From Candidatus Nanoarchaeia archaeon (GTDB lineage Archaea > Nanobdellota > Nanobdellia > Woesearchaeales > GW2011-AR4), in NCBI GenBank assembly GCA_035293285.1, contig DATDOM010000082.1, positions 422 to 64,421 on the forward strand: a stretch of DNA of 64,000 nucleotides, written 5' to 3'. Position 1 is the first letter of the stretch; each line of letters starts with the position of its first letter. A program made the position numbers and the translations under genes. Of this stretch, positions 9,951 to 57,466 are shown one piece after another. The notes below the pieces were generated by a model. That model did not search any database and was not told the DNA's origin. It saw only the letters and a program-made list of their open reading frames with translations.

Positions 9951-10270
9951 GGCCTCGCCATTAGCTCGTTGAACGTTGTTATGTTTTATCTAAATTAAAA
10001 AGACGCTGCATCATATCTAGGCCGCACCAATAGTGCGGCGTACATAGATAATCAAACCCGCACAACTCGCCCCATTTGGGCGAGAATTAAGGATTATCAT
10101 CCGTGGATGAACATCGAGTGCAGAGGGAAAATCCATACGAAGTAGGGATTTTACCTTTGCGAGCAGGGTTTTCACAAAGAAAGCCCGTGTGTGAATCCTT
10201 ACTCAGGGAATATATTTCTGAATAAACAGAGGTAAGCCTACCTATCGCGAAGCATATTTTAGTTAATAAA
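9951..10270 (+). repeat. GC-rich multi-hairpin intergenic element, copy A (long, interrupted form)
   Basis: GGCCTCGCCATTAGCTCG at 9951. Hairpin GCCGCAC-CAATA-GTGCGGC plus TACATA at 10021-10045. CGCACAACTCGCCCCATTTGGGCGAG at about 10058-10084. Conserved right end CCTA..CGCGAAGCATATTTTAGTTAA at 10238-10267. Confidence 0.6.
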
Positions 10271-17610: not shown

Positions 17611-18063
17611 ATGAAATTTTTCATTTTTCAGAATAATAAGTCGCAGGCTGCAATGGAATTCCTGATGGCTTACGGCTGGGCCATTTTGGTTGTTTTAGTC
17701 GCTATCGGCGCTTTAGCTTATTTTGGGGTTTTAAGCCCTCAGAAGTTTTTGCCTGAAAGGTGCATTCTTGAGTCAGGTTTTAGCTGTGTAAGCCATAAAG
17801 TTGAGCCTTCCAGGATAACGCTCATCATTTCAAATGCCAAGGGAAGGGATATTACAATTACAAACATAAAAGTTGCAGACTGCGAGTCTGGCCTTTCGCA
17901 GGATTTGGCAAATGGTGCGCAGAGCTCGTTTACAGTAGGCGGGTCCTGCAGCAACGGAATACAAAAAGAAAGATTTGACGGCGAAATATCCATAAGCTAT
18001 ACTGAAAAGGACACTGGCCTTACAAAGACTGCCTTTGGAAACCTAAATACCAAAATAGAGTAA
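17611..18063 (+). CDS. Archaeal type IV pilin-like protein (class III signal peptide, DUF361/EppA-type)
   Basis: N-terminus NNKS/QAAMEFLMAYGWAILVVLVAIGALAYFG with Q at +1 and E at +5 after the predicted cleavage site. Confidence 0.75.
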   Translation: MKFFIFQNNKSQAAMEFLMAYGWAILVVLVAIGALAYFGVLSPQKFLPERCILESGFSCVSHKVEPSRITLIISNAKGRDITITNIKVADCESGLSQDLANGAQSSFTVGGSCSNGIQKERFDGEISISYTEKDTGLTKTAFGNLNTKIE

Positions 18064-18130
18064 AAAACAGTTAAATTTAAATAGAGGCCATTCCAAGAAT
18101 ACATAATTAAAATCAAATGAGGTGAATTTA

Positions 18131-18565
18131 ATGATGAACAGAAAGTCACAAGCAGCCCTTGAGTTCATAATGACTTATGGTTGGGCCATTCTTGTTGTTT
18201 TAGTCGCTATCGGCGCATTAGCTTATTTTGGGGTTTTAAGCCCGGACAGATTTTTACCGAATAAATGCACACTGCAGTCTGGAATTGCGTGCACTGACTT
18301 CAAGGCAACTTCTGGAAGTGTAATTGTACATATAACAAACTCACTTGGACAGGACCTTGATACAGTAGTTATCGGTGCTGGCGACTGCGGAAATTCAGGT
18401 GCCGGAGTAACATTGGCAAACGGCGCATCGTCGACGTTTACAGTGACTTGCAACCCAGTATTGACCGGAAGCAAGTATAATGCGCAATTAAACGTATCTT
18501 ATGTTGTAACTGACACATCAGTTTCGCACAACAACGTAGGACAGATAACGGCAAGGCTTGAGTAA
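18131..18565 (+). CDS. Archaeal type IV pilin-like protein, tandem paralog
   Basis: MMNRKS/QAALEFIMTYGWAILVVLVAIGALAYFG. ATG 18131 preferred over GTG 18122 because the GAGGTG Shine-Dalgarno sequence lies just upstream. Confidence 0.75.
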   Translation: MMNRKSQAALEFIMTYGWAILVVLVAIGALAYFGVLSPDRFLPNKCTLQSGIACTDFKATSGSVIVHITNSLGQDLDTVVIGAGDCGNSGAGVTLANGASSTFTVTCNPVLTGSKYNAQLNVSYVVTDTSVSHNNVGQITARLE

Positions 18566-26503: not shown

Positions 26504-26697
26504 GTCATGTTTAGGCCTCGCCAATAGCTCGGCATACATTTTATCTGCAAGTTGCACAACTCACCTGCATTACGGCGAGAGTTAATGGAATTATAAAATC
26601 CGTTTAAAGAAGCAACTCACGCAATGCGACGTGGTAGCTTTATGTATGCGCGCCAAATGCGGCGCGCCTAGAATCCGCGAAGCATCTTTTAGTTAAC
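26504..26697 (+). repeat. GC-rich multi-hairpin intergenic element, copy B (full, palindromic layout)
   Basis: GTCATGTTTAGGCCTCGCCAATAGCTCGGCATACAT, then GCACAACTCACC..CGGCGAGAGTTAAT. Inverted module ATGTATGCGCGCCAAATGCGGCGCGCCTAG (hairpin at 26648-26667). Right end CCGCGAAGCATCTTTTAGTTAAC. Confidence 0.65.
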
Positions 26698-26774
26698 AGA
26701 TTTAGTCAGAATGAAAATCGAAATTTAACTTTGCACAACGTTTAAAAACAAAGTTGATTTACTTTTCACTTAAA

Positions 26775-28538
26775 ATGCTGAGGCAATTGATAATAACTGT
26801 AATGGGGAACGTGGATGCAGGCAAGACGCAGCTGCTTGACTCTATAAGAAAGACTTCCGTTGTTGAATCGGAGCCCGGTAAGATTACACAGTGCATAGGC
26901 TGCTCTACAATTACAATGGATTCAATAAAAAGAATCTGTGGAAGCCTGCTTGAAAAAAGCAAGATGGAGATGAAGATACCTGGATTCATAATTCTTGACA
27001 CTCCAGGCCACGCAAGCTTCACAAGCCTCAGGAAAAGAGGAGGAAACTTGGCGGACATTGCAATACTTGTCATTGACATAAATGAAGGAGTAAAGCCTCA
27101 GACAATCGAGTGCATAGAAATTCTCAAGAATTACAAGACCCCATTTGTTATTGCATTAAACAAGCTTGATTTGCTCGTCGGATGGCAGACTCATAAAGAT
27201 ATGAATTTAGTGCAGAGCATACAAAACCAAAATGAAAGCGCCGTCATGCTGATTGAAAAAAAGCTTTACGAAGTTGTGGGAAAGCTGAGCGAGTACGGAT
27301 TAAATGCCGACAGGTTTGACAGGGTTTCTGATTACACAAAACAGATTGCAATAATACCCATTTCTGCAAAAACAGAAGAAGGATTTGCAGAACTTCTGAT
27401 GGTAATAACCGGCCTGTCACAAAAATTTCTTGAAGAAAACCTGAAAGTAAATGTGGACGGGCGTGCAAAAGGAACTGTGATTGAAGTCAAGGAAGAAAAG
27501 GGACTTGGCACTACAATGGACGTGATAATTTACGACGGCAGGCTAAAATACGGTGATACTATAGTAATTGGTTCGCTATCTGATCCAGTTGTTACGAAAG
27601 TCAAGACAATGTTTGAGCCTGCAGCCCTTTCTGAAATGCGCGACAAGAAAACAAAATTCAAGTCAGTAAAAGAAGTTATTGCTGCTACTGGCGTCAAGAT
27701 TTCTGCGCCAGGAATGGAAAATGTTGTTGCAGGAATGCCACTAAGAAGCTGCGAGCCCAATGAAGTTGAAAAAGTCAAAGAAGAACTGAAAAAAGAAGTG
27801 GAAGAGGTTTTGATACAAACTGACAATCAGGGAATTGTGGTAAAGGCTGATTCTCTTGGCTCGCTTGAAGCGGTAATCAAGCTTTTTAAAGAAAAAAATA
27901 TTGACATAAAGAAAGCATCAATTGGCAATATCTCAAAAAAGGACATGTCAGATGCCGAGTCAAGTTATGACAAAGACCCGCTTCACTCCTGCATTATTGG
28001 ATTTAATGTTTCAATGAACCAGGATTTAAAGGCAAATGAAAAAGTTAAGATGATATTCAACAATGTAATTTACAAACTAATTGAAGATTTTGAAAAGTGG
28101 GAAAGTGAGACGAGAAAAATGCTTGAGGCAAAAGAAATCCAGTTTTTGCAAAAGCCCTGCAAAGTCATGATTATGAAAGGATATGTATTTAGGCAAAACA
28201 ATCCTGCAATTGCAGGAACTGAAGTGCTCTTGGGAACTTTGCAGACTGGAACTCAGCTGATGAAAAAAGACGGAATTCCATTAACAGAAGTCAAAGGCAT
28301 GCAAAAAGAGCAGGAGAACTTAAGCTCTGCGGCAAAAGGAATGCAGATAGCAGTTTCAATGCCAAATGTTACAATTGGAAGACAGCTTTTGGAAGGGGAT
28401 ATATTATATTCTTTTGTGACTGAAGATAATTTCCGCAAATTCAAGGAATTCAAGAAATATCTTTCGCAGGAAGAGATAGTGGTCTTAAGGGAGATTGCAG
28501 AAATAATGCGTAAAAGCAATCCTATGTGGGGGATTTGA
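26775..28538 (+). CDS. infB: Translation initiation factor aIF5B (IF-2 family GTPase)
   Basis: G1 VMGNVDAGKT, G3 DTPGH, G4 NKLD and the aIF5B domain order. ATG 26775 preferred over TTG 26754. A TTTAAAAA box lies about 26 nt upstream. Confidence 0.85.
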   Translation: MLRQLIITVMGNVDAGKTQLLDSIRKTSVVESEPGKITQCIGCSTITMDSIKRICGSLLEKSKMEMKIPGFIILDTPGHASFTSLRKRGGNLADIAILVIDINEGVKPQTIECIEILKNYKTPFVIALNKLDLLVGWQTHKDMNLVQSIQNQNESAVMLIEKKLYEVVGKLSEYGLNADRFDRVSDYTKQIAIIPISAKTEEGFAELLMVITGLSQKFLEENLKVNVDGRAKGTVIEVKEEKGLGTTMDVIIYDGRLKYGDTIVIGSLSDPVVTKVKTMFEPAALSEMRDKKTKFKSVKEVIAATGVKISAPGMENVVAGMPLRSCEPNEVEKVKEELKKEVEEVLIQTDNQGIVVKADSLGSLEAVIKLFKEKNIDIKKASIGNISKKDMSDAESSYDKDPLHSCIIGFNVSMNQDLKANEKVKMIFNNVIYKLIEDFEKWESETRKMLEAKEIQFLQKPCKVMIMKGYVFRQNNPAIAGTEVLLGTLQTGTQLMKKDGIPLTEVKGMQKEQENLSSAAKGMQIAVSMPNVTIGRQLLEGDILYSFVTEDNFRKFKEFKKYLSQEEIVVLREIAEIMRKSNPMWGI

Positions 28539-31777: not shown

Positions 31778-31960
31778 GTCATGTTTACGCCTCGCCATTA
31801 GCTCGGCATGTATGGATTCTCAATTCCGCACACTCGCCCCATTAGGGCGAGGTTTAATGATTTTGGTAAGATTATTGCAATGAATCGAGGCAAATTTTAG
31901 TGCTAATCAAAATTTGCCGAGCGAAACTAGGGGAGCGAAGCGACGAGTTTAAGAGTTAAT
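31778..31960 (+). repeat. GC-rich multi-hairpin intergenic element, copy C
   Basis: GTCATGTTTACGCCTCGCCATTAGCTCGGCATGTAT. CGCACACTCGCCCCATTAGGGCGAGGTTTAAT. Long hairpin CGAGGCAAATTTT-AGTGCTAATC-AAAATTTGCCGAG at 31886-31921. Right end CTAGGGGAGCGAAGCGACGAGTTTAAGAGTTAAT. Confidence 0.65.
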
Positions 31961-33978: not shown

Positions 33979-34100
33979 AACACACCTCTTTTTTTAGTAA
34001 TCAGTAAAATAAGGGTATTTATAGGTTTCGGAAAAGACGAGATGCAGTTAAATTAAAATATGAACCAGAATAAAATTTTACTGGATTTTTTATTTTAATC

Positions 34101-34165
34101 GGTCGTTTGACGACAATAGCTACACTCGGCAAATTTTGACTGGCACTAAAATTTGCCTCGATTTA
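34101..34165 (-). repeat. Partial copy D of the hairpin element (module 3 only), inverted relative to copy C
   Basis: The reverse complement reads ATCGAGGCAAATTTTAGTGCCAGTCAAAATTTGCCGAG (34125-34160), nearly identical to 31886-31921. A GTCGT-CAA-ACGAC hairpin follows. Confidence 0.55.
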
Positions 34166-34215
34166 TTACAATAATTGAAACTAAATATTGTTAAATGGGT
34201 TTGCCATCAATAGAA

Positions 34216-35280
34216 TCAATACTTCATCTTAAACCTTAAAACTGCCCCAATCCCGCCAAGGCCGTCAAGCTTCATGCCGCCGTCGTGGTCTGAGCTTATT
34301 ATTTCAATTTCGCCTTTTGACGAATCTACTTTTTTCATGATTGACTCAAGCTCAAAATAGAAATTTTCTGCCCTGGATTTCTGGATTAATGAGTCTGTCA
34401 AAAGCAGCTCCTTAATTGCGCCCATTTCTGCAGCCTCTTTTGTCTGCTTTAGGCCGTAAGCTGCAAGGTTGTTTTTTGCAATCTCGGTAAACAGCTCCTC
34501 AACCTTGTTCATTTCCTTTGCACTCCTTTCCTGCTTTAGGGCAACTTTTACTTCAGGCCTTTTTATGACTTCGTCAATGCCATTCTTTGTCGCCGATGAG
34601 CAGGTTGCAAGGATAACTATCTTTTTTATTTCATCATTTTTAATTTCCTTCAAAAAGTCTTCTTTCCAGAATGCAGGAGACGCCAAGATAACCTGCTTTA
34701 TCTTGTATCGTTCAATGTATTCCTCGAGTTTTTTTTGCATCTCTGCATAGAAATTACCGCTTGACTTGTTTTCGGTCCGTTTTTTTTGAACATTTCCCTC
34801 GATATGCAAAAGCACTTCATAGCCGTATTTCTTGAAAAGCGCAAAATACCCCTCTTCGCGGTCGTGCACCAGTATAAGAATTGATGATTTTGTTTCGGAG
34901 CACGCCTCTTTTAGCTTGTCAAGCTGGTATTTTAGCCATTTTTCCTTGATTATCTCAACAGTCGTGTTCTCATCAATGTTAAAAGTGTGGTAATCTCCAA
35001 GCGGAATGTCTTCAGGCGCTGCCTTGATTATGCCGGAAACCCTTAAAGTGTTGTTATGCTTTGAGAATTCGACTTTTTCCACAAGGATTTTGAGAAATAC
35101 AGGCTTTTTTGATGCTTCCTTTGCCCGTTCTTCTGAACTTGCCACTTTTATTTTCCTTAAGGTCTTGCCTTGAAGATAGTCATTTGGCTCAATGATGTTG
35201 CTTAGATACCAAAGGTCATCAAGTTCCTGTGTTAAAAGCTTGATTTCTCCTTTTTTAAGATTTGAATGGATTAGTTTCAT
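34216..35280 (-). CDS. pelA: mRNA surveillance / ribosome rescue factor Pelota
   Basis: MKLIHSNLKKGEIKLLTQELDDLWYLSNIIEPNDYLQGKTLRK N-terminal domain and an eRF1-like C-terminal layout. Confidence 0.85.
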   Translation of the reverse strand: MKLIHSNLKKGEIKLLTQELDDLWYLSNIIEPNDYLQGKTLRKIKVASSEERAKEASKKPVFLKILVEKVEFSKHNNTLRVSGIIKAAPEDIPLGDYHTFNIDENTTVEIIKEKWLKYQLDKLKEACSETKSSILILVHDREEGYFALFKKYGYEVLLHIEGNVQKKRTENKSSGNFYAEMQKKLEEYIERYKIKQVILASPAFWKEDFLKEIKNDEIKKIVILATCSSATKNGIDEVIKRPEVKVALKQERSAKEMNKVEELFTEIAKNNLAAYGLKQTKEAAEMGAIKELLLTDSLIQKSRAENFYFELESIMKKVDSSKGEIEIISSDHDGGMKLDGLGGIGAVLRFKMKY

Positions 35281-35392
35281 TGTACTAGTTTTTTAGAATG
35301 GACTATTTAAAGATTAATATAAAATTATGTGAAAAATTGGATTGTTTGGGGATTACTTCCCTATTTAGATAAAATATGCTCCGCGGTTGATA

Positions 35393-35559
35393 GGCGGCCT
35401 TCATTAGGGCCGCATTCATTACCGCACAACCCGCTGCATTTCGGGGTTTTTTGTTTTCTATCGAAATAAATGATTAAGTCAAGAAGCAATTTTCGCCCAA
35501 ATGCAGGCGAATATGGGAATTGGAGACAAAATGCATGCCGAGCAAATGGCGAGGCCTAG
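35393..35559 (+). repeat. GC-rich multi-hairpin intergenic element, copy E (palindromic layout)
   Basis: GCGGCC-TTCATTAG-GGCCGC, then CGCACAAC-CCCG..CGGGG. Inverted modules TTCGCC-CAAATGCA-GGCGAA and ATGCATGCCGAGCAAATGGCGAGGCCTAG. Confidence 0.6.
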
Positions 35560-35735
35560 ATTTTACACGATTTTTAAGAAAACGCCCAAAGTTTTATACT
35601 CCAAGCAGGCGAAAACTAAAATCAAAGAAGTAATAAGTATTAATTTTCCTAAATATTTATACAAAACAAAAACATTTAAATATGTTTATGTTAAGTTCAC
35701 AACATAAAAGTTAATACAGGAATTTAAAAGGTACA

Positions 35736-36914
35736 ATGATGAACAAGAAGGGCCAGGGCGGAATAAATGCCGCTGTGCTTATAGCAATTATAGCAGCGCT
35801 GATAATTCTTTACATCATATTCCTCCCAACGTCTGAACGCGAGAATGTGCTTGGCGAGAATTCAGGCTCTTCATCAGACGGAGGCTCGTCAGTTTCTTCT
35901 GTTTCCCTTTTAAAGACAAATCCCGGCAAGCTCACAAGCCAGGGTGATTTGGAAAATGAAAAGCAGATACCAAACGTGTTTTTGGTGGAGACAAGCAATG
36001 CAAAAGAGCTTGACAGGATAAACCCCTTCATTGTAAGAAACGGCTGGTTTGACACAAAAGACAGCAAGATAGAATTTTCGCTCGATGAGCCGGAAAATAC
36101 CGACAATGCAGTCCTCTCATTTGGCACAAAAAAAAGGCAGGGTGTGCTGACAATAAAGCTAAATGGAGTCATAATTTTTGAAAATGAGCTTACAAGCGAC
36201 ATACCTGAGCCTGTAAAGCTTGACCGAAAGCTCCTGCAAAAGGCAAATTCGCTTGAATTCAGCGTATCTTCAGTCGGCGCAAAATTCTGGCAGACAAATG
36301 AGTATTCGCTTGAAAACATAAAAATCATTGGAGACATAACTGACACAAGCAGGCAGGCGTCAGAAAATGTTTTTGACATAACTGAAAGCGAGTTTTCGAA
36401 CCTGGAGCGGGCAACACTTAGGTTTGCACCATACTGCAGCGATACTGCAAATGTCGGACTATTGGAAATATTTGTCAACACCAAAAAAGTGTTTTCAAGC
36501 GTTCCTGTCTGCGACAATCCTTACAAGCAGAGCCTGCCAAAGAGCCTCTTAAACCAGGGGGAAAACAATATTGTATTCAAGACCAAAAAGGGCAGCTACA
36601 GCATTGAACAGATAAGAGTTGCCCTGGACTTTAAAAGCGCTGCATCAAAAACCTATTATTTTGAGCTTACCCCTGAGCAGTATTCAGCAATAAAAAGCGG
36701 AAGCAAGAGCGTGATTGCAACGCTGAAATTCGTGGATGACAAAACACAGAAAAGGCTGAAATTAGATGTCAACGGCAAGGCAGAAACAATAGAGACTGAC
36801 AAGGATTCAGTTACAAAAGCAATAGGAACTAAGGTGTCAGAGGGAAACAACTACATCAAGATAGACCCTTTTGAAGACCTTGAGCTTGTCGAGCTAAAAG
36901 TTGACCTTAACTAA
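35736..36914 (+). CDS. Secreted protein with a prepilin-like (class III) signal peptide, unknown function; first gene of the plus-strand surface operon
   Basis: MMNKKGQGG-INAAVLIAIIAALIILYIIFL, then a Ser/Gly linker and a roughly 330-aa beta-rich region. An ATTTAAATA box lies upstream. Confidence 0.6.
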   Translation: MMNKKGQGGINAAVLIAIIAALIILYIIFLPTSERENVLGENSGSSSDGGSSVSSVSLLKTNPGKLTSQGDLENEKQIPNVFLVETSNAKELDRINPFIVRNGWFDTKDSKIEFSLDEPENTDNAVLSFGTKKRQGVLTIKLNGVIIFENELTSDIPEPVKLDRKLLQKANSLEFSVSSVGAKFWQTNEYSLENIKIIGDITDTSRQASENVFDITESEFSNLERATLRFAPYCSDTANVGLLEIFVNTKKVFSSVPVCDNPYKQSLPKSLLNQGENNIVFKTKKGSYSIEQIRVALDFKSAASKTYYFELTPEQYSAIKSGSKSVIATLKFVDDKTQKRLKLDVNGKAETIETDKDSVTKAIGTKVSEGNNYIKIDPFEDLELVELKVDLN

Positions 36915-37017: not shown

Positions 37018-40000
37018 TTGGCTGACGACGGAGAAACTGAAAATCAAGAGGAGAATCCTGCAAGCGGAAGCTCCAGGTGGTCCAGATTTAAAGAGAAAGC
37101 AAGACAGGGCTACAAGAAGGGTAAAGAAAAGATAAGCCAGTCTGGACAGGGAGATGATTCTGGTGATGACAGCGGCGAGGCGCGCGGCAAGGGAACAATG
37201 CCAATCAATGTAACAAATATTGTTGAGCGCGCAAAGTCTGGAAATTTCGTCGGTTGGATAATTGTTGTTGCGCTTGTTTACATAGCTGCATATTACTGGT
37301 TTTTGCCGTTTAGGGTTTGGATCGGCATCTGGGGCTTTAAGCTTTTAGTCGGAATAATTTGGGTCTGCTTCATTTTATATGGGCTGTTTTCTGGTTTCTG
37401 GAACAAGGGTAAGGAAAATATTTCAATAACCAATTTTTTTGTCGGGCTTGTGCTGTTAGTATGGCTATTGGACATGATACCTGCAGACTTTCCGCTTTTT
37501 GGAAGCATTCTTGGCGGGCCCTATGCCGGTTTTGAGTTTGACTGGAAGAGTTTTTCATTTGGATTTTCAACAACGATACTGGCAGTAATAACATCTGGAA
37601 TAACATTTGCATTCTTGTATGTGAACATGATATTTGACATAATAAAAAAAGATGTCATAATGTTTGGGTTTGGGTTTGGGTTTATTGTATTGACAAACAA
37701 GCTTTTGGCAAATTTCATTCCAAGCTATTTGAGCGGCTCTTTTGTGCTCGTCTGGGGGTTTTGGATTTATTTCATTGTTACTGCCGTCCTTGTGGTGCTT
37801 GCAGTGTGGCTTGCAAAAAGATATGATGTGAAGTTAGGAGAAAAATCCGGTGATTTTTTCACTTATCTTCTTATGGCTTTTGTGTTCTCATTTTTTTGGA
37901 TAAACAACGGCTGGATTCACAGCACAAAAGCACTTTACCATGCGATATTCATACTTTGTTTTGGATTTTTTTACATCCAGCCGCATGAGAGGAAAAATCC
38001 TGTAGCATGGCACATTATTATCCCCGCTTTATTGATAATTGACTTTTATGGCTATGGACTTTTGTACTCGACAGATATCCTCTTTGTGCAGTTTATCCCC
38101 GTACTTGTGATTTTTGTCCTTGCTTACTGCTATTACCAGACCAAAAGTAAATATGCCCTGGTTTCTTTCATATTTCTTGTAACTGTGATACTTATCCTTA
38201 GCCTTGTGGCAGTCAACGCATACCAGACAGGCTCAATCCAGTTTCAGGCAAGAGGGGACGGAAAATCATTTTCAACTTTTCTCAATACGCTGACAAAGCA
38301 GACTACAAGCCTTCTCGAGGGGCAGCTTGAAACTGCAACAGGCGGATTATACAGAAGCCAGGTTGAAAAAAACCAGTATGAACCTTTGGGAGTCTACCTC
38401 ACGGACATACGGGCGTCCCAGCCAAGGTACAGGAGTGACGAGCCTGTTACAATCTGGGGCAAGATTAGTGCAAAAACACTGAGCGACCCAATAATAATAA
38501 ATTTCAACTGCTACAGGTTTGAGGGAAAAGACGAGAACAAACAGAAAATTCCAATAAAAGCAGAAGGGCTTTATCCAAACAAGCCTTTCAGTGTTTTTAC
38601 ATATGAGGAGAAAGACACCGAATGCAACTTTAACACCGAAGAAGACCAGGTTGAGCTAAAACCAGGCTCAAACGAAGTTTCATTGTCCGCAACCTATAAT
38701 TTTGACACAAGCGCATACCACAAAGTTTACTTCATTGACAAAGCAAGGCAGCGCTCAATGCTTGTTGAAGGGCTTGACCCATTAAAGGAGTTTGGGATAA
38801 CTGATAAAAACCCGGTTACCGTCTACACAAACGGCCCTGTTGAGCTTGCAGTAAGCATTTCAAACATTGTGACTGTTTCTTCCGAAGATGATTTGGCTCC
38901 GGTCATAGGAATACTCTTAAAAAACCGCGACAGGATAAGCGACAAGGCAGGAAGCCCGCTTGGACAGTGGGAGGGAAAGATAAAGGACATAAAAGAGCTT
39001 GTTTTGGTGCTTCCAAGGGGAGTTTCACTTAAAAAAGTGGAGAAAGACCAAAGATATGACTGCAAGCCTTCGCCTTTCAAGGATTACAGCTCACAAGACT
39101 GCAAAAACTCGTGCCAAACCTACGTGACTGAGCCATGCCATAAAATCTGCAACGAAAACGAGCAGTGCATTGAGCGTGACTGCAAGCCTTCAGAAAAAAG
39201 ATGTTTAGAGGAATGTGACGATTTGTTCAGGGTTGATTCTGCAGGCGGCGCAGAGCTCAAAGGATACCAGCTTGACATTGAAAGCATAAAATCGGAATTC
39301 AAATCAGATGACTTGAAAGATATAGATAAGTTTCGGACTTTTGGCTGCAGGCTTGAATTGGATGGCAAGGAGGTTTTGGATAACACGCCGATTACTACAA
39401 AATTCATAAGGTTAAAGGCAAGATACAATTACACTGTTGAGAAGGGTTTTAACATCAATGTTGATTCAATAAAAATAGATGAAACTGTAAACGGGGGACT
39501 GGTTTCTGATGACGGCTCGGGAAGATTTCCAGTAAGCAATTGTCAGTATAATGGACAGGAGTTTGCATCGAAAAAGTCCAACATAGACAAGATAATAAAC
39601 GGTCTTGCAGCTGCAGGAATAAATACAAAAAATGGAATTTCAGGCGTTCTTGGAAACTTCCGGCAGGAAAGTAACTTTGACCCGACAAAACAAGGTAAAT
39701 TTGGCGACTTGACTTGCTCTAATGACAGAATTGGACCACAGCAGGGGGCAATAGGAATTGCGCAGTGGTGCCGTGAACGCAGGACAAAACTAATCAGTAA
39801 ACACCCGAATTCATACCTGACAATTGATTCACAAGTGGATTATCTTGTATCTGAATTAACGGGGGACTACAAGGGGGCTGTTGCAAAAATGAATGCTGCA
39901 GGATCTCCGGAACAGGCTGCATTAATATGGCAGGGCAAAGCTTTTGAAAGTGCCACGCCAAGTCTAGCGGGGCCAAGAGATGAATATGCAAGGCAGGTTT

Positions 40001-40023
40001 ATAACGGTCTCGAGTGCACTTGA
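37018..40023 (+). CDS. Giant fusion protein: polytopic membrane domain, unknown ectodomain, Cys-rich linker and C-terminal phage-tail-lysozyme-like domain
   Basis: The ORF starts at TTG 37018 and the first ATG lies about 60 codons in. About 10 TM helices (residues about 75-400). The ectodomain shares landmarks with the three downstream paralogs. Cys-rich CKPSPF..CKNSCQTYVTEPCHKICNENEQCIERDCKPSEKRCLEEC. C-terminus GVLGNFRQESNFDP...GAIGIAQWCRERRTKL...QVDYLVSEL resembles Pfam Phage_tail_lysozyme (PF18013). Confidence 0.65.
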   Translation: MADDGETENQEENPASGSSRWSRFKEKARQGYKKGKEKISQSGQGDDSGDDSGEARGKGTMPINVTNIVERAKSGNFVGWIIVVALVYIAAYYWFLPFRVWIGIWGFKLLVGIIWVCFILYGLFSGFWNKGKENISITNFFVGLVLLVWLLDMIPADFPLFGSILGGPYAGFEFDWKSFSFGFSTTILAVITSGITFAFLYVNMIFDIIKKDVIMFGFGFGFIVLTNKLLANFIPSYLSGSFVLVWGFWIYFIVTAVLVVLAVWLAKRYDVKLGEKSGDFFTYLLMAFVFSFFWINNGWIHSTKALYHAIFILCFGFFYIQPHERKNPVAWHIIIPALLIIDFYGYGLLYSTDILFVQFIPVLVIFVLAYCYYQTKSKYALVSFIFLVTVILILSLVAVNAYQTGSIQFQARGDGKSFSTFLNTLTKQTTSLLEGQLETATGGLYRSQVEKNQYEPLGVYLTDIRASQPRYRSDEPVTIWGKISAKTLSDPIIINFNCYRFEGKDENKQKIPIKAEGLYPNKPFSVFTYEEKDTECNFNTEEDQVELKPGSNEVSLSATYNFDTSAYHKVYFIDKARQRSMLVEGLDPLKEFGITDKNPVTVYTNGPVELAVSISNIVTVSSEDDLAPVIGILLKNRDRISDKAGSPLGQWEGKIKDIKELVLVLPRGVSLKKVEKDQRYDCKPSPFKDYSSQDCKNSCQTYVTEPCHKICNENEQCIERDCKPSEKRCLEECDDLFRVDSAGGAELKGYQLDIESIKSEFKSDDLKDIDKFRTFGCRLELDGKEVLDNTPITTKFIRLKARYNYTVEKGFNINVDSIKIDETVNGGLVSDDGSGRFPVSNCQYNGQEFASKKSNIDKIINGLAAAGINTKNGISGVLGNFRQESNFDPTKQGKFGDLTCSNDRIGPQQGAIGIAQWCRERRTKLISKHPNSYLTIDSQVDYLVSELTGDYKGAVAKMNAAGSPEQAALIWQGKAFESATPSLAGPRDEYARQVYNGLECT

Positions 40024-40027
40024 AACA

Positions 40028-41056
40028 ATGAACAGCAAAAACATTAGCTTGATTATGGTCATATGTATTTTTATTAGCTCCTGCTCCTCTTCAAATAACC
40101 AGCAGTCATCGCTTGCCCAGCCGATTTATGGCTTTGACGGGCTTAAAATTGAGTTTGCAAAAGGGTTGTCACCAAAAGTTTTCGAGAAAAGCAGCTTTCC
40201 GCTGATTTTAAAGATATCCAACCAGGGCACTTACACAATTAATGAAAACGACAAAGCAGTGCTCTCAATTGGGACTGAAAAGGATTACATTCCTTCTTTT
40301 GAGTTTCTTCCAAGCGATGCACGTATTGAGACATCTATAAATCCAAATCAGAGGATGTTTGCTTTAGAAGGAAGAAGCCCTTTTAACCCCAGAGGAGAGG
40401 AGATTTATGTAGGACTCAATGCAAAGACAAGCAAGCTTGATGCACAGAGCGAGAAAAGGGTGTCAACCCTGACTGCAAGCCTTTGCTACCGTTATAAGAC
40501 AGTCTTAAACACAGATGCGTGCATAGACACAGACATTGTTGGGATAAGAACTGGAAAAAAAGTGTGCACTGTAAAAGACATTGTTTTTCCAAACGGGCAG
40601 GGCGCGCCCATTGCAGTAACAAAAATAGAGCAGCAGATAATACCACAGCAGGATTCTGTAAAGCAGCAGTTTCTCATATACGTTGAAAACAAGGGAAACG
40701 GGCATCCATTAAATCCGAGTAACTACCTGTCAATATGTGACAGCCAGGATTTTTCGCCAAAACTCTGGAATGTCGCATTCCTAAAGGCATTTAGGGTCGG
40801 AGGCGGCCCTGAAGGAGAGCAGATGATATGCTGCCCTAACATAAACGGCGAGTGCATTGAAACTGAAACTGACCCGGAGAAGATGGCAGGATTCATAAGG
40901 CTAAAGGACAACAAGGATTTTGTAAGATGCACGTTTGCAAAAGGAGTGGGGTTTGACAAAGACACTTTTATTTCACCAATAAAAATAGAAATAGAATATG
41001 GATATTCACAGACAATTTCGACTGATGTAGTAATCCAGAGGCCGATAAAATACTAA
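40028..41056 (+). CDS. Lipoprotein, novel ~340-aa family, paralog 1 of 3
   Basis: Start taken at MNSKNISLIMVICIFISSC. Shared landmarks LCYRYKT..ACIDTD, KKVCTVKD..GQGAPIAVTKIEQQ, IKIEIEYGYSQT. Confidence 0.6.
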   Translation: MNSKNISLIMVICIFISSCSSSNNQQSSLAQPIYGFDGLKIEFAKGLSPKVFEKSSFPLILKISNQGTYTINENDKAVLSIGTEKDYIPSFEFLPSDARIETSINPNQRMFALEGRSPFNPRGEEIYVGLNAKTSKLDAQSEKRVSTLTASLCYRYKTVLNTDACIDTDIVGIRTGKKVCTVKDIVFPNGQGAPIAVTKIEQQIIPQQDSVKQQFLIYVENKGNGHPLNPSNYLSICDSQDFSPKLWNVAFLKAFRVGGGPEGEQMICCPNINGECIETETDPEKMAGFIRLKDNKDFVRCTFAKGVGFDKDTFISPIKIEIEYGYSQTISTDVVIQRPIKY

Positions 41057-41098
41057 GCTTAGCAAAGTTTATATAAATGAATAAGAAAAAAATAAAAA

Positions 41099-42151
41099 AT
41101 GAAAGTGTTTAATAAAAAAATCCAGAGCATAATCCTTTTCTTTATTTTAGCCCTTTTTGTCTTTGGATGCTCTGCAAGAAAAGACGTAAAGGATGCAAAA
41201 GACAATGTAAGGGCCGGAATTGAAGGCATGTCAATTGCCTATGTTGCAAACAACCCCCCAAATGAGATTCATATTGATGAATCATCCACAAACGACTTCA
41301 AGATTTTGATGGAAGTGAGAAACAAAGGGGCATATCCGCAGCCTGGGGAAACTGGATTTGGAGAAAATTCAAAAATTTACATAAGCGGATTTGACCCCGA
41401 TATTATTGAACTTGGGCCGCTGGATTCAAGCATAGACAATAAAATCAGCAACCTTGCGCTTGACGGAAGGAGTGACTTGAATCCATACGGCAGCCTGGAT
41501 GTCATGGCATTCCAAGGAAAAATACATTATGATAAAATGATTGTTGAAAAATATGAACCCATCCTTCTTGCGACGTTGTGCTATAACTACAATACAGTTG
41601 CCGGGCCTTCTGTCTGTATCGACCCTGACCCATATTCAATAACAAGCGAAAAGAAAGTTTGCCAGATACATAACTTCAACCTCGACGGGCAGGGCGGGCC
41701 TGTTGCGGTGATAGGAATACAGGAAGAGGCATTTGCATCAAAAACATCTTTTAAGATAACTGTAAAGAATGTCGGCGGCGGAGACGTATTAAGGCCGTCA
41801 GAAGAAACGCTGGAAAAATGCAATCCAAGCAAACCAGGAACAGGAGGGGCATTTGAAGTCTCAAAAAGCAAAGTTACGCTTGATGACATGAACAAAATTT
41901 ATGTTGATGAAGTATCGATTTCAGGAAAAAATCTGGAATGTGCGCCTTTTATGGACAGCGCGGGCTCAACAAGAGCGAGCAGCGGGATTATGAGGCTTGT
42001 AAATGGAGAGGGATTCATTATTTGCGACCTTAAAAAAGAGCAGTATGGGCAGACTGTAGCAGCATACACAACACCGCTCCAGATAAAACTAAGCTATGGA
42101 TACAGGACATCAACTGCAAGAAAGCTGCTCATAATCAAAGAGCCTTCCTGA
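41099..42151 (+). CDS. Lipoprotein, novel ~340-aa family, paralog 2 of 3
   Basis: Signal plus VFGC. LCYNYNT..VCIDPD, KKVCQIHN..GQGGPVAVIGIQEE, LQIKLSYGYRTS. Confidence 0.6.
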   Translation: MKVFNKKIQSIILFFILALFVFGCSARKDVKDAKDNVRAGIEGMSIAYVANNPPNEIHIDESSTNDFKILMEVRNKGAYPQPGETGFGENSKIYISGFDPDIIELGPLDSSIDNKISNLALDGRSDLNPYGSLDVMAFQGKIHYDKMIVEKYEPILLATLCYNYNTVAGPSVCIDPDPYSITSEKKVCQIHNFNLDGQGGPVAVIGIQEEAFASKTSFKITVKNVGGGDVLRPSEETLEKCNPSKPGTGGAFEVSKSKVTLDDMNKIYVDEVSISGKNLECAPFMDSAGSTRASSGIMRLVNGEGFIICDLKKEQYGQTVAAYTTPLQIKLSYGYRTSTARKLLIIKEPS

Positions 42152-42210
42152 TTGGGATAAACAGAAAGTTTTATATACCGAATTTGAAATAAAATGTTGA
42201 AAGAGGTAAA

Positions 42211-43233
42211 ATGAAAAAACAATATCTAATGTGCCTGCTCGTTGTTGCCATTCTTGCTTTGGCTGCCTGCTCAAAAAGCGGAACATCAAGCGGAAGCGCT
42301 CCTACAACTCCTTTTATCGGCGGAACCTCCGGAATGGTCATAAATTTTGAAAAAGACAGCCCCCCTCCTGAAGTCACGGATGACCAGTCATTTGCATTCA
42401 ATGCCATCGTAAGGCTTCAAAATGACGGGGAGCACACTGTTGAAAAAAATGACGTGAAACTGCAGCTTTTGGGGTTTGACCCAGCTGACTTTGGCGCGGC
42501 ATTTGAAGATGTGAAGGACGTTGAGCCTGAGGACGATCTTACATCAAAAAAAAGGGATGCTGAAGGAAACATAATCGAGGGAACCACTACTTTTGCGACA
42601 TTTCCGAGAAACGGAGGATTTTTTGTCCCAACTAAATTTCCAGGAAACACTGAATTCACTGTAAGGGCAAATGTGTGCTATAACTATGAAACTCAGTCTA
42701 ATTCAAAACTGTGTGTTTTAAGGGATATGATTAATGTCCGCGATGATGCAATCTGCAGGCCAAACGGCGCAAGAACAGTTTACAGCTCGTCAGCGCCTGT
42801 GCAAGTAACAAGCCTGAGGCAGACTGTTGTCGGGCAAAACAAGATTTCATTCAGCTTTGACATTGTGTTAAGCGGGAACGTTGATATTTTCTGGGATGAT
42901 ACTGAGACAACGCCTTCAAGCGGCTTTGATGTTGCGTGCCCAAGAGCGCCAAGGGAAAGAAGAATAAGGGAAAGCAGGGTCGGAGTCGAAGTAACAGAAA
43001 AAAGAGAAACCGCAGGCTCTGTGTTTACAAACCTTAAGTGCGGCGGGCTTTTCAATTCAGCAATTGGGGACGTGCAGCTTGTGAACGGAAGAAGGACAAT
43101 CACGTGCACAGCTGACATGGTTGAAGACAGAGTAGACCTTGAAAAGCAGGTAGAGATTTTGCTTAAATACAACGTCCTGGACAACAAGGAGACAAGGATT
43201 GTTGTAAAGCACCTTTCAACTGACGCTGATTAA
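42211..43233 (+). CDS. Lipoprotein, novel ~340-aa family, paralog 3 of 3 (most divergent)
   Basis: Lipobox LALAAC. VCYNYET..LCVLRD, AICRPN..SAPVQVTSLRQ, VEILLKYNVLDN. Confidence 0.6.
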   Translation: MKKQYLMCLLVVAILALAACSKSGTSSGSAPTTPFIGGTSGMVINFEKDSPPPEVTDDQSFAFNAIVRLQNDGEHTVEKNDVKLQLLGFDPADFGAAFEDVKDVEPEDDLTSKKRDAEGNIIEGTTTFATFPRNGGFFVPTKFPGNTEFTVRANVCYNYETQSNSKLCVLRDMINVRDDAICRPNGARTVYSSSAPVQVTSLRQTVVGQNKISFSFDIVLSGNVDIFWDDTETTPSSGFDVACPRAPRERRIRESRVGVEVTEKRETAGSVFTNLKCGGLFNSAIGDVQLVNGRRTITCTADMVEDRVDLEKQVEILLKYNVLDNKETRIVVKHLSTDAD

Positions 43234-43333
43234 AAGTTTTATTTTGTTTAGTTTTATTATTTCTAATCGAGTCTCTCGATTGGATTATATTTTTAATTTA
43301 ATTAGTTCTTCCTAAAAAAGCGAATAATAGATA

Positions 43334-43405
43334 GGCCTCGCCATTAGCTCGGCATATATTTTATCATCCAATTCGCACAACTCGCCCCATTAGGGCGAGA
43401 GTTGA
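43334..43405 (+). repeat. GC-rich hairpin element, copy F (short form, modules 1+2)
   Basis: GGCCTCGCCATTAGCTCGGCATATAT...TTCGCACAACTCGCCCCATTAGGGCGAGAGTTGAT, lying between the two convergent surface operons. Confidence 0.65.
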
Positions 43406-43437
43406 TATTAAATTTAGTTATTACAAGAACTGATGGA

Positions 43438-45444
43438 TTAATTCTGAAGCTTTAATATCTGTGCGTTTGTCTCTCCAAGATTTACTTTTGTGTCTGAATT
43501 CAGGTCGGCAATTGGGTTTCCGCTGCTGTCTGAAGCCACAACAAAGAAATAGTAGACGTTCTCATTCAAATTACCCATAAACTTTATGATTATTTTTTCA
43601 TTCACCGGTGGAATTAATTCTGCCTCACTGTCCTCTCTTGATTTGTCTGTTGGCATTAAGTCGCTTATCGCGACATCGTTTAAGATGCCCTGAATTCTAT
43701 TTTGGTCAAGCGGCTTTGATTTTGAATCTGATTTATAATAAACCCTGTAACTGATCACATCAGAAACAACTGACCCATCTGCATTAACAGTTGCTTTGTT
43801 TATTAATGGTATTTCGATTTGTCCTGACTGGTTGGGGAGCTGCAAAGATGATATGCCTACCAGGTTGTCTGAGCTTGGAAATAAATCATCAGTTGAGGCA
43901 AAAGTCGCGTAGTTTTGCCCGCTTAGAATATATTTATTTCCTTCAATGCTCTTGTCATTGTCAAGCTCAATGTTTCCGTCGTTTGCTGCAGTGACTGCAA
44001 AATTGTATTCCTGCCCGTCATTGGGAATGCTTATTTTAATTAACATGCTTTTTTCATCAGGCTCTTCATTTTTTGAAAATCTAAGATTTTCAGCATAATG
44101 GAGTTTTGCTGTGTATAAGGGCACGTCAAATACGCTTGAGCCGATTTTGCGGTATCTGCACGGAGTTTTTGGAGAAGTGAATTCACAATTTGTGATGTCG
44201 ATTGAGTCAAGGGTTTCCTCAGCATCTGAAATGACTTTCACCCTGTTAATTGTCCCTTTTGAAACTTCTTTTTTTATGTCATCCATTTTCATATCAATAA
44301 AGCTTATTTCTTTTGGAGCGTAATATATTGCATAGCTTTTCGTAAGTGTGTCATCGCTTTGCCTCCATTTTAGTATTACAGATTTTTCTGACTTTAAGGA
44401 ATCAAAAACTTTTAAGGATTCAATCGGTTTTGGAGCAGGATTTGGAATTGTGACTGCAAATCTGTAAAAAATATTTCTCAGCTTGACTTGATTATCAGAT
44501 TCATCGAAAGCATAAACCTGCTTGTCGCTTTTATAACAATATGTTACGCCTTTCTTTAATGGAAGGTCTATTATTGTGTTTAATGAAGGTGACAGAAAGT
44601 TACCTTCTTCGCCTTTTGCTATGAACTTCAGCTGCGCTAGTTTCTGGTCCTCGCCGTCTAGTTTTGAAATTTTTGATGTCTTGTATACTATTATGCTTTC
44701 GCCGCTTAATGCAAGCTCAGCGTATTCAGGATATGCAATGTTTGGGAAGTTTTCAGACCTGAACTGGCTGATTTTCTGTTCGCCTTCTTTCCCAAGCTTG
44801 ATTCTCACGGAGTCGGTATATTTGCATACATTGCTTTTTGCCTGTAGGTTTTCCTGGCAGAAGACGTCTCTTGAAACATAGTCTGTGTAAAGAAGATTGC
44901 CTGTTTCGATGTAGCTAAGGGCCAAAGAGTCTAAAGGCTTTTCTGAATCTGCTATTGAAGCCTTTATTTGTCCATTTTCTGTTGTGAGGGTGATTTCATA
45001 GTTTTTGCCTACTTTGACGTCAATTGTCGAAAACCTGCAAACACCATTGTCCTGCTCTGTGCTTATGCACTCTGTTAACTTGTTTGAAAAATCATCAATT
45101 ATGGCCTTTGGCTCATTTTCTCCGGAATTTACGCATCCCCACTTTGCATCATTGGATTTTTCCATAAAACAAGAAAAAACGTTTTCAGATATTTTACAGG
45201 GCTCGATGACTTCTGACCTGAACTCGTCTTTTACTTTTTTGTATTCCTCCTCCATTTTATAGTCCATTTTTGCCCTGAATGAAGGGTTTATTGAGTATGA
45301 GCCTATGATTGGGTTAATTTCTTTTTCTTCGTCAACTGCAAATCCGGTTATTCCGGTTATTGGGCCGTGGCTGCTAAGAGCAACAACTGTTAAAAGTAAT
45401 AAAATCGGAATTCCAACAATCAAAAAGAATTTTTGCAGTTCCAT
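43438..45444 (-). CDS. Large N-terminally anchored extracellular protein, unknown function (possible FN3/Ig-like repeats); last gene of the minus-strand operon
   Basis: MELQKFFLIVGIPILLLLTVVAL anchor. A beta-rich 640-aa ectodomain with an FN3-like stretch KPIESLKVFDSLKSEKSVILKWRQ...YAIYYAP. The start overlaps the upstream stop. Confidence 0.55.
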   Translation of the reverse strand: MELQKFFLIVGIPILLLLTVVALSSHGPITGITGFAVDEEKEINPIIGSYSINPSFRAKMDYKMEEEYKKVKDEFRSEVIEPCKISENVFSCFMEKSNDAKWGCVNSGENEPKAIIDDFSNKLTECISTEQDNGVCRFSTIDVKVGKNYEITLTTENGQIKASIADSEKPLDSLALSYIETGNLLYTDYVSRDVFCQENLQAKSNVCKYTDSVRIKLGKEGEQKISQFRSENFPNIAYPEYAELALSGESIIVYKTSKISKLDGEDQKLAQLKFIAKGEEGNFLSPSLNTIIDLPLKKGVTYCYKSDKQVYAFDESDNQVKLRNIFYRFAVTIPNPAPKPIESLKVFDSLKSEKSVILKWRQSDDTLTKSYAIYYAPKEISFIDMKMDDIKKEVSKGTINRVKVISDAEETLDSIDITNCEFTSPKTPCRYRKIGSSVFDVPLYTAKLHYAENLRFSKNEEPDEKSMLIKISIPNDGQEYNFAVTAANDGNIELDNDKSIEGNKYILSGQNYATFASTDDLFPSSDNLVGISSLQLPNQSGQIEIPLINKATVNADGSVVSDVISYRVYYKSDSKSKPLDQNRIQGILNDVAISDLMPTDKSREDSEAELIPPVNEKIIIKFMGNLNENVYYFFVVASDSSGNPIADLNSDTKVNLGETNAQILKLQN

Positions 45445-57263: not shown

Positions 57264-57390
57264 GGGCTTCGCCACCAGTTACTCGCGCCAGTATTGGCGC
57301 GACATATATTACAAATTACAACGAACGCAAAAAGTCAATGAATGTTCCGAGGCGAAATTTTAATGGCAGAGAAAACTTCGCCGAGCGAAT
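57264..57390 (+). repeat. GC-rich multi-hairpin intergenic element, copy G (divergent)
   Basis: Hairpin TCGCGCCA-GTAT-TGGCGCGA plus CATATAT at 57283-57309. Module 3 CGAGGCGAAATTTT..AAAACTTCGCCGAGCGAA at 57348-57389. Confidence 0.55.
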
Positions 57391-57466
57391 CTATTGAAAA
57401 TCCTCTAAGGATTTTCCGGTTTAAATTGTAAAAACGGTAAAAAATAAACAAAATCCAACAACTAAA

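Follow-up and report, generated by a model that had tools for sequence, protein, structure and literature searches.

A family of modular hairpin repeats with co-varying stems in the intergenic DNA of a putative Woesearchaeota-like archaeon

A repeat family in the spacers between housekeeping genes

The window analysed here, a stretch of 64,000 nucleotides of contig DATDOM010000082.1 with a G+C content of about 39 %, encodes housekeeping proteins that include Trm1, aIF5B, Pelota, acetyl-CoA synthetase, RNA cyclase, and a radical-SAM enzyme of wyosine formation, as judged by domain annotation of its open reading frames (ORFs). Most of its long spacers are occupied by copies of a hairpin-bearing repeat, which is the subject of this report. 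The nearest named homologues of aIF5B and Pelota belong to Candidatus Woesearchaeota and reach at most 73-76 % identity, so the host appears to be a Woesearchaeota-like DPANN archaeon without a close sequenced relative; its genome was sampled through this window plus short public contigs. The repeat copies adjoin housekeeping genes rather than transposases, both in the window and on metagenome contigs (numbered with L below), and no transposase-family match was found among the 50 ORFs of the window. Four of the seven window copies lie between divergent genes (A, B, E, and G), two between genes in tandem (C and D), and one between convergent genes (F).

Our analysis showed that the window holds a real family of 75-230-nt intergenic repeats built of GC-rich hairpins with co-varying stems. 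A preliminary description of this DNA had proposed a family of modules at seven loci, and we read all seven and found the described modules in each. Its boundaries shifted at three of them, as copy D extends to 34092-34160, copy E to 35368-35582, and copy G to 57426 (Table 1). The complementary stem pairs that it listed are all present, namely those at 10021, 26648, and 57283 given in Table 1, CTCGCCC/GGGCGAG at 43381, and GGCAAA/TTTGCC versus GGCGAA/TTCGCC in module 3. De novo repeat detection recovered the family under three repeat numbers (D6, D12, and D14), and a 21-mer (GCCTCGCCAWTAGCTCGGCAT) occurs four times in the window at one mismatch or less, compared with 0.00 in dinucleotide-preserving shuffles. 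A covariance model of the unit, calibrated short and therefore with rough E-values, scored window copies at 67-96 bits; neither this model nor an nhmmer profile found additional copies in the window. The diverged copy G was assigned to the family because it shares the module order and motifs. The elements have a G+C content of 0.42-0.51, compared with the AT-rich spacers around them.

The basic unit, or half-element, is about 100 nt long. Read inward, the aligned copies show a tail with a mini-hairpin (H0), a TAG or TAC tag, a first hairpin (H1), the motif NT(A/T)(C/T)AT, a spacer, CACAA, a second hairpin (H2), and A(G/A)TT(G/A); H1 spans 19-25 nt and H2 16-20 nt, always within this fixed unit of two to three hairpins. 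The tail has the consensus AAAT(A/C)(T/C)GCTCCGC-N4-(G/T)A, and H0 usually reads GCGGAGC or GCGAAGC, with longer alternative stems in some copies (GTCGTC/GACGAC, GTCGCC/GGCGAC, GTCG/CGAC, TTGC/GCAA, and GAAAATCC/GGATTTTC). As DNA, d(GCGNAGC) is an extraordinarily stable mini-hairpin (PMC13037366). The tag at H1 is TAG in 17 of 28 units, TAC in eight, and TTG in two, and the H2 loop contains CATT in 26 of 27.

Units come in two types. Every L-type H1 reads GCCTCGC..GCTCGGC, contains a tandem T.C/C.T mismatch, and is separated from H2 by 19-21 nt; this 19-mer, ignoring loop variants, occurs in 17 of the 28 units and also in units borne by an insertion sequence (IS). The GC stem that the preliminary description had assigned to its first module is thus present as a hairpin, but in its commonest form it is imperfect, with the tandem mismatch in every copy. 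In the R type, the H1 stems are perfect but variable (GCGGCC, GCGCGCC, GCGGCCC, and GCCGCCGC), and the spacer to H2 is 8-10 nt. Copies B and E are full elements in which one L-type unit and an inverted R-type unit flank an AT-rich centre. Both had been described as imperfect palindromes, and the modules do form inverted pairs, but the two halves are unlike and the element is not a simple palindrome. Other units stand alone (F, L008, L011, and L015) or are joined to module 3 (C, D, G, and L012), a hairpin of the form CGAGGC-AAATTTT..AAAATTT-GCCGAG that has a tandem G.A/A.G inside its stem and, in copy C, a folding z of about -3. The rule that L pairs with R derives mostly from copies fetched by the L-type H1 pattern, the unbiased sample being B and E only.

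Table 1. Repeat copies in the window and their parts (bits are covariance-model scores).
Feature	Position	Strand	Remarks
Copy A, composite	9951-10266	+	read from the sequence; 96.5 bits at 10012-10092; between divergent FabA-like and biotin carboxylase genes
A, truncated H1 fragment	9951-9968	+	
A, inverted tail	9990-10020	+	
A, H1	10021-10039	+	GCCGCAC caata GTGCGGC
A, H2	10066-10084	+	CTCGCCC cattt GGGCGAG
A, centre	10093-10240		about 150 nt, unique, with no match anywhere else in the fetched DNA; own hairpin GGAAAATCC..GGATTTTAC, similar to H0 in the tail of copy G
A, tail	10241-10266	+	with GCGAAGC
Copy B, full element	26504-26696	+	L half, AT-rich centre, inverted R half, tail; 85.4 bits (L half), 16.8 bits (R half)
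B, L-half H1	26515-26533	+	GCCTCGC caata GCTCGGC; tandem T.C/C.T; TAG tag before, ATACAT after
B, L-half H2	26560-26579	+	CTCACC tgcattac GGCGAG, one A.C mismatch; TGCACAA before, AGTTAAT after
B, inverted R-half H2	26618-26633	+	CACG caatgcga CGTG
B, inverted R-half H1	26648-26667	+	GCGCGCC aaatgc GGCGCGC; perfect 7-bp stem
B, tail	26668-26696	+	CTAGAATCC GCGAAGC ATCTTTTAGTTAA; mini-hairpin H0 of GCGNAGC type
Copy C	31778-31959	+	89.4 bits
C, L-half H1	31789-31807	+	
C, L-half H2	31833-31851	+	
C, module 3	31886-31921	+	CGAGGCAAATTTT..AAAATTTGCCGAG
C, tail	31927-31959	+	with GCGAAGC
Copy D	34092-34160	-	
D, tail	34092-34124	-	H0 GTCG tcaaa CGAC
D, module 3	34125-34160	-	
Copy E, full element	35368-35582	-	canonical order; 67.2 and 24.9 bits
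E, tail	35368-35393	-	GCGGAGC on the minus strand
E, R-half H1	35394-35413	-	
E, R-half H2	35430-35445	-	
E, L-half H2	35492-35511	-	
E, L-half H1	35537-35555	-	
E, degenerate inverted tail	to 35582	-	
Copy F, solo L half	43332-43406	+	between convergent genes; 94.2 bits
F, H1	43335-43353	+	
F, H2	43381-43399	+	
Copy G, diverged	57264-57426	+	weak matches: 13 bits, nhmmer E = 0.18
G, inverted tail	57264-57282	+	GCTTCGC
G, H1	57283-57302	+	TCGCGCCA gtat TGGCGCGA
G, module 3	57348-57385	+	
G, tail	57391-57426	+	H0 GAAAATCC tctaa GGATTTTC

Covariation of the stems was assessed on 28 units from the window and the metagenome contigs. A MAFFT alignment of all units was structurally inconsistent, with shifting stem registers, and flank-anchored arms and an Infernal alignment were used. 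In the first approach, the arms were anchored by the conserved flanks, so that the register is independent of pairing, and the 3' arms were dealt among the copies as a shuffle. H1 showed six distinct outer 6-nt arm pairs, five of them fully Watson-Crick, and H2 showed 11 distinct 4-nt arm pairs; the observed pairing was matched in 11 of 5000 shuffles for H1 and in none of 5000 for H2. In the Infernal alignment (22 units, model R1), which was fitted to the structure and holds mostly L-type units, so that its numbers are supportive rather than exact, 85 % of cells pair, 5 of 14 pairs change on both sides, and the covariation score is 0.162 compared with 0.077 when shuffled, a value attained in none of 500 shuffles. 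The loops, the tag, and the motif after the stem are less variable than the inner stem positions. Because the tag, loops, and stem mismatch are conserved beside co-varying stems, we believe that the folded unit is recognised by something and is not the product of passive palindrome self-correction. The earlier argument from covariation to selection on structure holds as far as the covariation itself is concerned, but it does not establish an RNA function, and recognition of folded DNA would fit equally well.

Distribution, insertion and rearrangement of the copies

From the searches made here, the family appears to be restricted to this lineage. The exact H1 21-mer is absent from 185,579 representative genomes, three patterns gave no match in viral contigs, and a BLAST search with copy B against plasmids and phages gave none either. 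The 21-mer does occur on 18 metagenome contigs, of which one (L005) is the window itself and 14 carry new copies that adjoin housekeeping genes, such as those for Hsp70, GrpE, Nop56/58, RFC, TruD, and endonuclease V; most extra copies were fetched with the L-type H1 pattern, which biases the sample toward the L type. Divergence among copies is 19-28 %. The organism itself occurs in at least eight samples, among them ERZ27254752, ERZ27254767, ERZ28563803, ERZ4903055, JGI 3300025323, 3300002124, and SRR3989295. The covariance model found no match in about 140 kb around the corresponding genes of relatives (L020-L029 and L039-L041), and the relatives' DNA that was scanned contains no GC-rich perfect hairpins of this type.

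Two copies can be compared with the corresponding spacers of relatives. The spacer between the back-to-back genes for Trm1 and aIF5B is 338 nt long with copy B in the window and 59 nt in a relative that keeps the gene order (L027), and in another relative (L024) an extra gene lies between the two and the spacer upstream of aIF5B is 80 nt. Between a gene for a 392-aa protein and the Pelota gene, the spacer is 456 nt with copy E, versus 81 nt in L039 and 52 nt in L041. The short spacers of the relatives at these junctions indicate that copies B and E are insertions, not conserved genes, and the copies seem to have been inserted into intergenic DNA in this lineage only. Copy B sits between the core promoters of Trm1 and aIF5B, with the conserved aIF5B core promoter, CACAACGTTTAAAAA, outside the element. 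This promoter (window 26731-26775, about 30 nt before the ATG) is kept in four relatives at protein identities of 66-73 %, and its first part resembles CGCACAAC, the motif preceding H2 in the repeats, which is possibly a coincidence. At the other junction, L039 (9920-10000) and L041 (3845-3896) have one palindromic TATA region, ACATATTTAAATGT, common to the 392-aa gene and Pelota. In the window (35640-35690), the 392-aa gene has kept this TATA region, and a box of its own, TTTAAATAG, precedes the Pelota ATG by about 35 nt. Expansion of the spacer at copy E has apparently split a bidirectional promoter.

The copies also coincide with breaks. Public short-read contigs of the same organism end inside B, C, D, and E (L001 and L042 inside B, L001 at 31914 in C), as expected because dispersed repeats break assemblies; copy F recurs unchanged in three other public contigs. 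Contig L030, a strain variant from a different sample, is 100 % identical to window 34152-36329, and all 20 differences lie at 34096-34151, inside copy D (L030 counterpart 2170-2240). In L030 the module-3 stem has changed from GGCAAATTTT/AAAATTTGCC to GGCAAAAATT/AATTTTTGCC with its pairing kept, the loop and H0 differ, and the DNA beyond copy D is unrelated, with other downstream genes replacing acetyl-CoA synthetase. This change looks like recombination between two copies and shows that the elements are rearrangement breakpoints in the living population. We rejected the idea that the downstream gene in L030 is the ancestral neighbour seen in L039, as the proteins are unrelated. Exact-protein look-ups for strain variants without B or F returned only identical arrangements or contigs broken at the repeat.

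One unit was found inside an IS. Contig L002 (164-1357) carries a 1194-bp IS with perfect 16-nt inverted repeats, GGCTTCATCCAA, and a DDE_Tnp_1 transposase whose best family match is IS5. Eight more contigs (L046-L053, e.g. L046:84-1291) carry a variant of 1208 bp whose transposase is 89 % identical, and some of these contigs come from samples in which the window's Pelota gene also occurs. The transposases are 315-316 aa long, and homologues of the IS number hundreds in public data at 73-92 % identity. The IS stands at several different sites across several samples, and cross-contig flank matches (GTTTTGGGC and ACTCCAAAC) indicate 9-bp target duplications; the IS is an active IS5-like element of Woesearchaeota. 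In each of the nine IS contigs, a single L-type unit lies after the stop codon and before the right end of the IS. It is oriented in the sense direction, two T5 runs come after it, and it is thereby physically mobile as a passenger of this IS. The ORFs of the two IS variants share 82 % nucleotide identity, but the 57-nt segment from H1 through the tag to H0 differs at only two positions, which form one compensatory change of G-C to A-T with the tandem G.A preserved; H2 reads CTCGCCC/GGGCGAG versus CTCACCC/GGGTGAG. Because this segment is better conserved than the ORF and its changes are compensatory, the unit is likely under purifying selection inside the IS. Two ideas were rejected: that the IS of L002 gave rise to the elements, since it has unrelated terminal repeats and contains the unit internally, and that solo units are IS remnants, since homology stops at H2. 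On L046, the IS5-like IS has an immediate neighbour at 1416-2453, an IS110-family transposase gene (DEDD_Tnp_IS110 / Transposase_20), which suggests an IS-rich region in the same community.

Several other features of the window were recorded. A gene on the minus strand at 138-2066 holds 69/105-nt periodic DNA repeats (repeat families D3-D5); its 642-aa product combines thrombospondin type 3 repeats with an F5/8 type C domain. Two thiolase-like paralogues (5597-6736 and 8208-9332) lie 2614 nt apart and share stretches of 73-83 % DNA identity (D1, D2, and D8), and their cluster also encodes a CoA-transferase, a DUF362 protein, a FabA-like dehydratase, biotin carboxylase, biotin ligase, a thioesterase, and methylmalonyl-CoA mutase; the predicted acyl-CoA metabolism seems unexpectedly rich for a DPANN archaeon. 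Neighbouring paralogous genes at 17611-18063 and 18122-18565 (150 and 147 aa) are 77 % identical over 147 nt of DNA (D7) and have no Pfam match. The block at 37018-46655 is a run of large proteins, most without a Pfam match, among them a 1001-aa protein with a C-terminal phage-tail-lysozyme domain and another with an M15 peptidase domain; the syntenic counterpart in the relative L039 has glucosaminidase domains instead, and the block may be a cell-wall-lytic toolkit directed against a host. A 433-aa protein with a RelA/SpoT nucleotidyltransferase domain is encoded at 55327-56628, in what is an archaeal genome. A tRNA scan of the window found none.

Possible roles of the folded units

With moderate confidence, we regard the copies as lineage-specific, non-coding mosaic repeat DNA that is non-autonomous and behaves like bacterial repetitive extragenic palindromes (REPs) and bacterial interspersed mosaic elements (BIMEs), or like MITEs, the miniature inverted-repeat class of transposable elements. 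The distinct stems comprise 120 Watson-Crick pairs and six others. Read inward, the six are T.C, C.T, A.C, or C.A; on the outward strand, which runs from H2 through H1 and the tag to H0 and a T-run, the same positions are G.A, A.G, or G.T. H0 reads GCGNAGC on this strand, which is also the sense strand of the IS transposase. Because all of the non-Watson-Crick pairs are tolerable there (tandem G.A, G.T, and the GNA loop), we infer that the hairpins persist because their folded form is read on the outward strand, and the evidence that this is the functional strand is suggestive only.

On that strand, the transcript of a unit would form three hairpins and a U-tract, a 3'-end module that could stop transcription or block exonucleases. 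We tentatively prefer this reading for the transcripts concerned because the unit in the IS is in sense orientation, follows the transposase gene, and is itself followed by T5 runs; the placement of the IS-borne copy fits a role in transcription or RNA processing there. Most chromosomal copies are, under the same proposal, probably neutral or selfish. Several observations speak against the proposal. Four of the seven window copies and at least three more (L004, L009, and L010) of the 14 metagenome copies outside the window lie between divergent promoters with no obvious 3'-end use, and so many copies in this setting tell against a role as a terminator in general. Only five of seven solo units are turned toward the upstream gene in the outward sense, and the T-runs after H0 are often only 3-4 T long. 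The strand clue consists of three independent sites plus H0. Nearest-neighbour folding of H1 and H0, by a model that cannot score GNA mini-hairpins, shows little difference between the strands, and for the common H1 the energy is only -2.7 to -7.8 kcal/mol.

The spread of the free copies raises further difficulties of the same kind. No candidate mobilising enzyme was seen in the window or in copy-flanking DNA. Neither the window nor the free copies contain the IS terminal repeats, so the IS transposase acting on its own ends cannot explain the free copies. The preliminary description had pointed to target-site duplications as a check, and no consistent duplication was found at the copies, whose flanks are AT-rich and whose ends are fuzzy; in the relatives with empty sites, the neighbouring proteins are only 72-76 % identical, a distance at which junctions cannot be placed to the base. 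No filled and empty pair at high identity was found, so no sharp ends can be defined. In our view, a DDE transposase for which the tails serve as terminal inverted repeats and an HUH-type enzyme that recognises hairpins are about equally likely: the inverted tails of some copies fit a DDE-type MITE, and the tagged hairpins and unlike ends fit a single-strand mechanism of the HUH type.

Of the other explanations, a classical MITE family survives best, although it remains doubtful. Full elements would then be internal-deletion or chimeric derivatives of an autonomous DDE-type IS, moved in trans via inverted tails of about 30 nt (CTAAAT..GCTCCGC..TAG), with the hairpins being incidental or subterminal binding sites. 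Copies A, L019, L002, and L007 do have inverted tails at both ends (degenerate in E and F), the elements have the expected size, non-coding nature, and intergenic position with AT-rich flanks, and IS5-like ISs are active in the same samples. Their density, 7 loci per 64 kb, is near the 105 MITEs per Mb that an automated census reported for a Woesearchaeal genome, among the most MITE-rich archaea (PMC11602168). However, there is no visible target-site duplication, many copies have a single tail or tails in direct orientation (B, C, L004, L010, and L018, direct in the last three), solo units are common, and an IS with matching ends was not found (the terminal repeats of the associated one are unrelated). 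A transposase that reads only terminal repeats also leaves unexplained why copies that are 19-28 % diverged keep paired stems and conserved loops. The old MITE family of the preliminary description comes close to the picture obtained: insertions B and E that are absent in relatives, restriction to one lineage, diverged copies, and one unit in an IS all agree with it, but the hallmarks of MITEs are only partly there.

We think it unlikely that the units are an archaeal counterpart of REP systems and of their REPIN-type arrangements, read single-stranded and folded on one strand by a host factor or by an enzyme other than the REP-associated tyrosine transposases (RAYTs), with the IS5-like element having co-opted the module as an essential 3'-end part.

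It is improbable that the units are a small-RNA gene family, that is, independently transcribed structured RNAs whose covariation reflects selection on RNA function. Compensatory stem changes, conserved loops, G.A and G.U-compatible mismatches on one strand, an outward strand that ends in H0 and a T-run, and GC-rich elements among AT-rich spacers would all suit such a family. Yet Rfam 15, searched over the whole window at the gathering score, gave no match to any of its 4227 families in the elements; copy B gave none even at E-values up to 10, and the sole match across C, D, and E was an unrelated chance hit inside the Pelota gene. Whole-element folds, as RNA or DNA, reach z values of only -0.5 to -2.0 against shuffles, and the element centres have no conserved TATA box or B recognition element (BRE) matching the host promoter pattern aAAG-TTTATATA. 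The copies are also absent at orthologous sites and from the relatives' DNA, their modules recombine freely into truncated and solo forms, and one unit lies inside an IS. The structured small-RNA family that the preliminary description had offered as one option is not borne out by these results, and its remark that no known RNA family can be assigned agrees with them. Outward promoters in the tails were rejected as well, as the tails match the same promoter pattern poorly.

We give equally poor prospects to an explanation without selection, in which intrastrand template switching or gene conversion between arms or copies keeps the hairpins paired and the family is decaying junk. Both strands of every hairpin are palindromic DNA, and the exchange of a whole module-3 variant in L030 was a single event that apparently reflects recombination between copies rather than point mutation. 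Mismatches should nevertheless disappear under self-correction, yet 17 L-type units and both IS variants share the identical tandem T.C/C.T; the unpaired loops (CATT) and flanks (TAG and NTxxAT) are conserved while the stems vary, and the H1-tag-H0 segment of the IS is more conserved than its transposase ORF. Four further candidates were rejected: integron attC sites (no R'/R'' consensus, and syntenic housekeeping genes on the flanks), CRISPR (the spacing is not regular), replication-origin boxes (seven loci in 64 kb), and a tRNA origin like that of short interspersed nuclear elements (the tRNA scan of the window was empty).

At about 100 loci per Mb, the repeats would be a notable force in the evolution of a compact DPANN genome, as they more than quadruple promoter-bearing spacers, split shared promoters, and seed rearrangements. 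They also offer a natural experiment on constraint at the level of structure, with loops, tags, and a stem mismatch kept while stems co-vary, and with a unit kept in an IS through compensatory changes. Termination and RNA decay signals are barely known in DPANN archaea. A reader of the hairpins, if found, would represent either a new archaeal route for moving non-coding DNA or a portable 3'-end module for transcripts. In practice, the repeats break short-read assemblies of this lineage and are usable as strain markers.

Comparison with known repeat systems

Enterobacterial repetitive intergenic consensus (ERIC) sequences and the BOX elements of pneumococci (boxA-boxB-boxC) are intergenic imperfect palindromes or modular arrays with predicted stem-loops. 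We know of no transposase for either, and covariation with conserved loops is not, to our knowledge, their defining trait. The repeats described here are likewise modular intergenic palindromes with predicted stem-loops, but they have no sequence relation to ERIC or BOX, which are bacterial.

The IS200/IS605 elements have subterminal hairpins that are recognised as folded single-stranded DNA; the target of IS608 is TTAC, and the left-end hairpin of IS200 is a terminator. Our repeats resemble them, and the palindrome-associated transposable elements (PATEs), in their subterminal hairpins, in their unlike left and right ends, and in that some copies abut TTAC. In contrast, their halves are inverted homologues, TTAC adjoins only 8 of 28 units, and the carrier IS is of the DDE type; no Y1 transposase or TnpB was found in DNA near the copies. 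Among the IS families of archaea, IS200/IS605 is the most widely distributed (PMC13343696).

Like MITEs such as the Correia elements of Neisseria and those of Sulfolobus and haloarchaea, the repeats are non-coding, 75-230 nt long, intergenic, and lineage-specific, some have inverted ends, and their density is about 100 per Mb. They differ in that no target-site duplication or sharp termini were found, in their modular build with solo units, and in that strongly diverged copies keep compensated stems and conserved loops. Nor was a parent IS with the same ends found, as the sole related IS carries the unit internally and has ends of its own. Elements of this kind may have been counted in the MITE census mentioned above, although neither its main text (PMC11602168) nor the other literature searched describes these repeats.

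The REP and BIME elements of bacteria are, by analogy, the closest functional counterpart. Bacterial REPs act as stabilisers of mRNA 3' ends or as terminators and as recombination sites, and REP, BIME, and REPIN elements are mobilised by RAYTs (TnpA-REP), which are tyrosine transposases of the HUH type and whose genes mostly have REPs on their flanks. Both kinds of repeat are short, GC-rich, imperfect palindromes beside a short conserved tag, extragenic and present in many copies, arranged singly, in inverted pairs, or in mosaics with other motifs, and marked by a conserved mismatch in the stem (for REPs, see PMC3733652 and PMC2817692). GTAG and CGTC repeats have been reported for bacterial phyla (PMC3733652), and the REP-type Y1 classes have been reported only in bacteria (PMC6006769). 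Among the 50 window ORFs and 30 ORFs beside metagenome copies, there is no RAYT, Y1_Tnp, or other HUH protein. The host here is an archaeon and the tag is TAG or TAC in place of the GTAG or CGTC of REPs; only L002, L007, and the IS-borne units have a GTAG, on the opposite strand. Taken singly, H1 and H2 would fit the size of a REP, which is one hairpin of 20-40 nt, but here two to three hairpins make up each unit of about 100 nt; the members of a pair have different stems, and one unit is part of a DDE-type IS. If the repeats do prove to be REP-like, DPANN archaea would have a mobile or regulatory DNA system based on hairpins for which no equivalent has been described.

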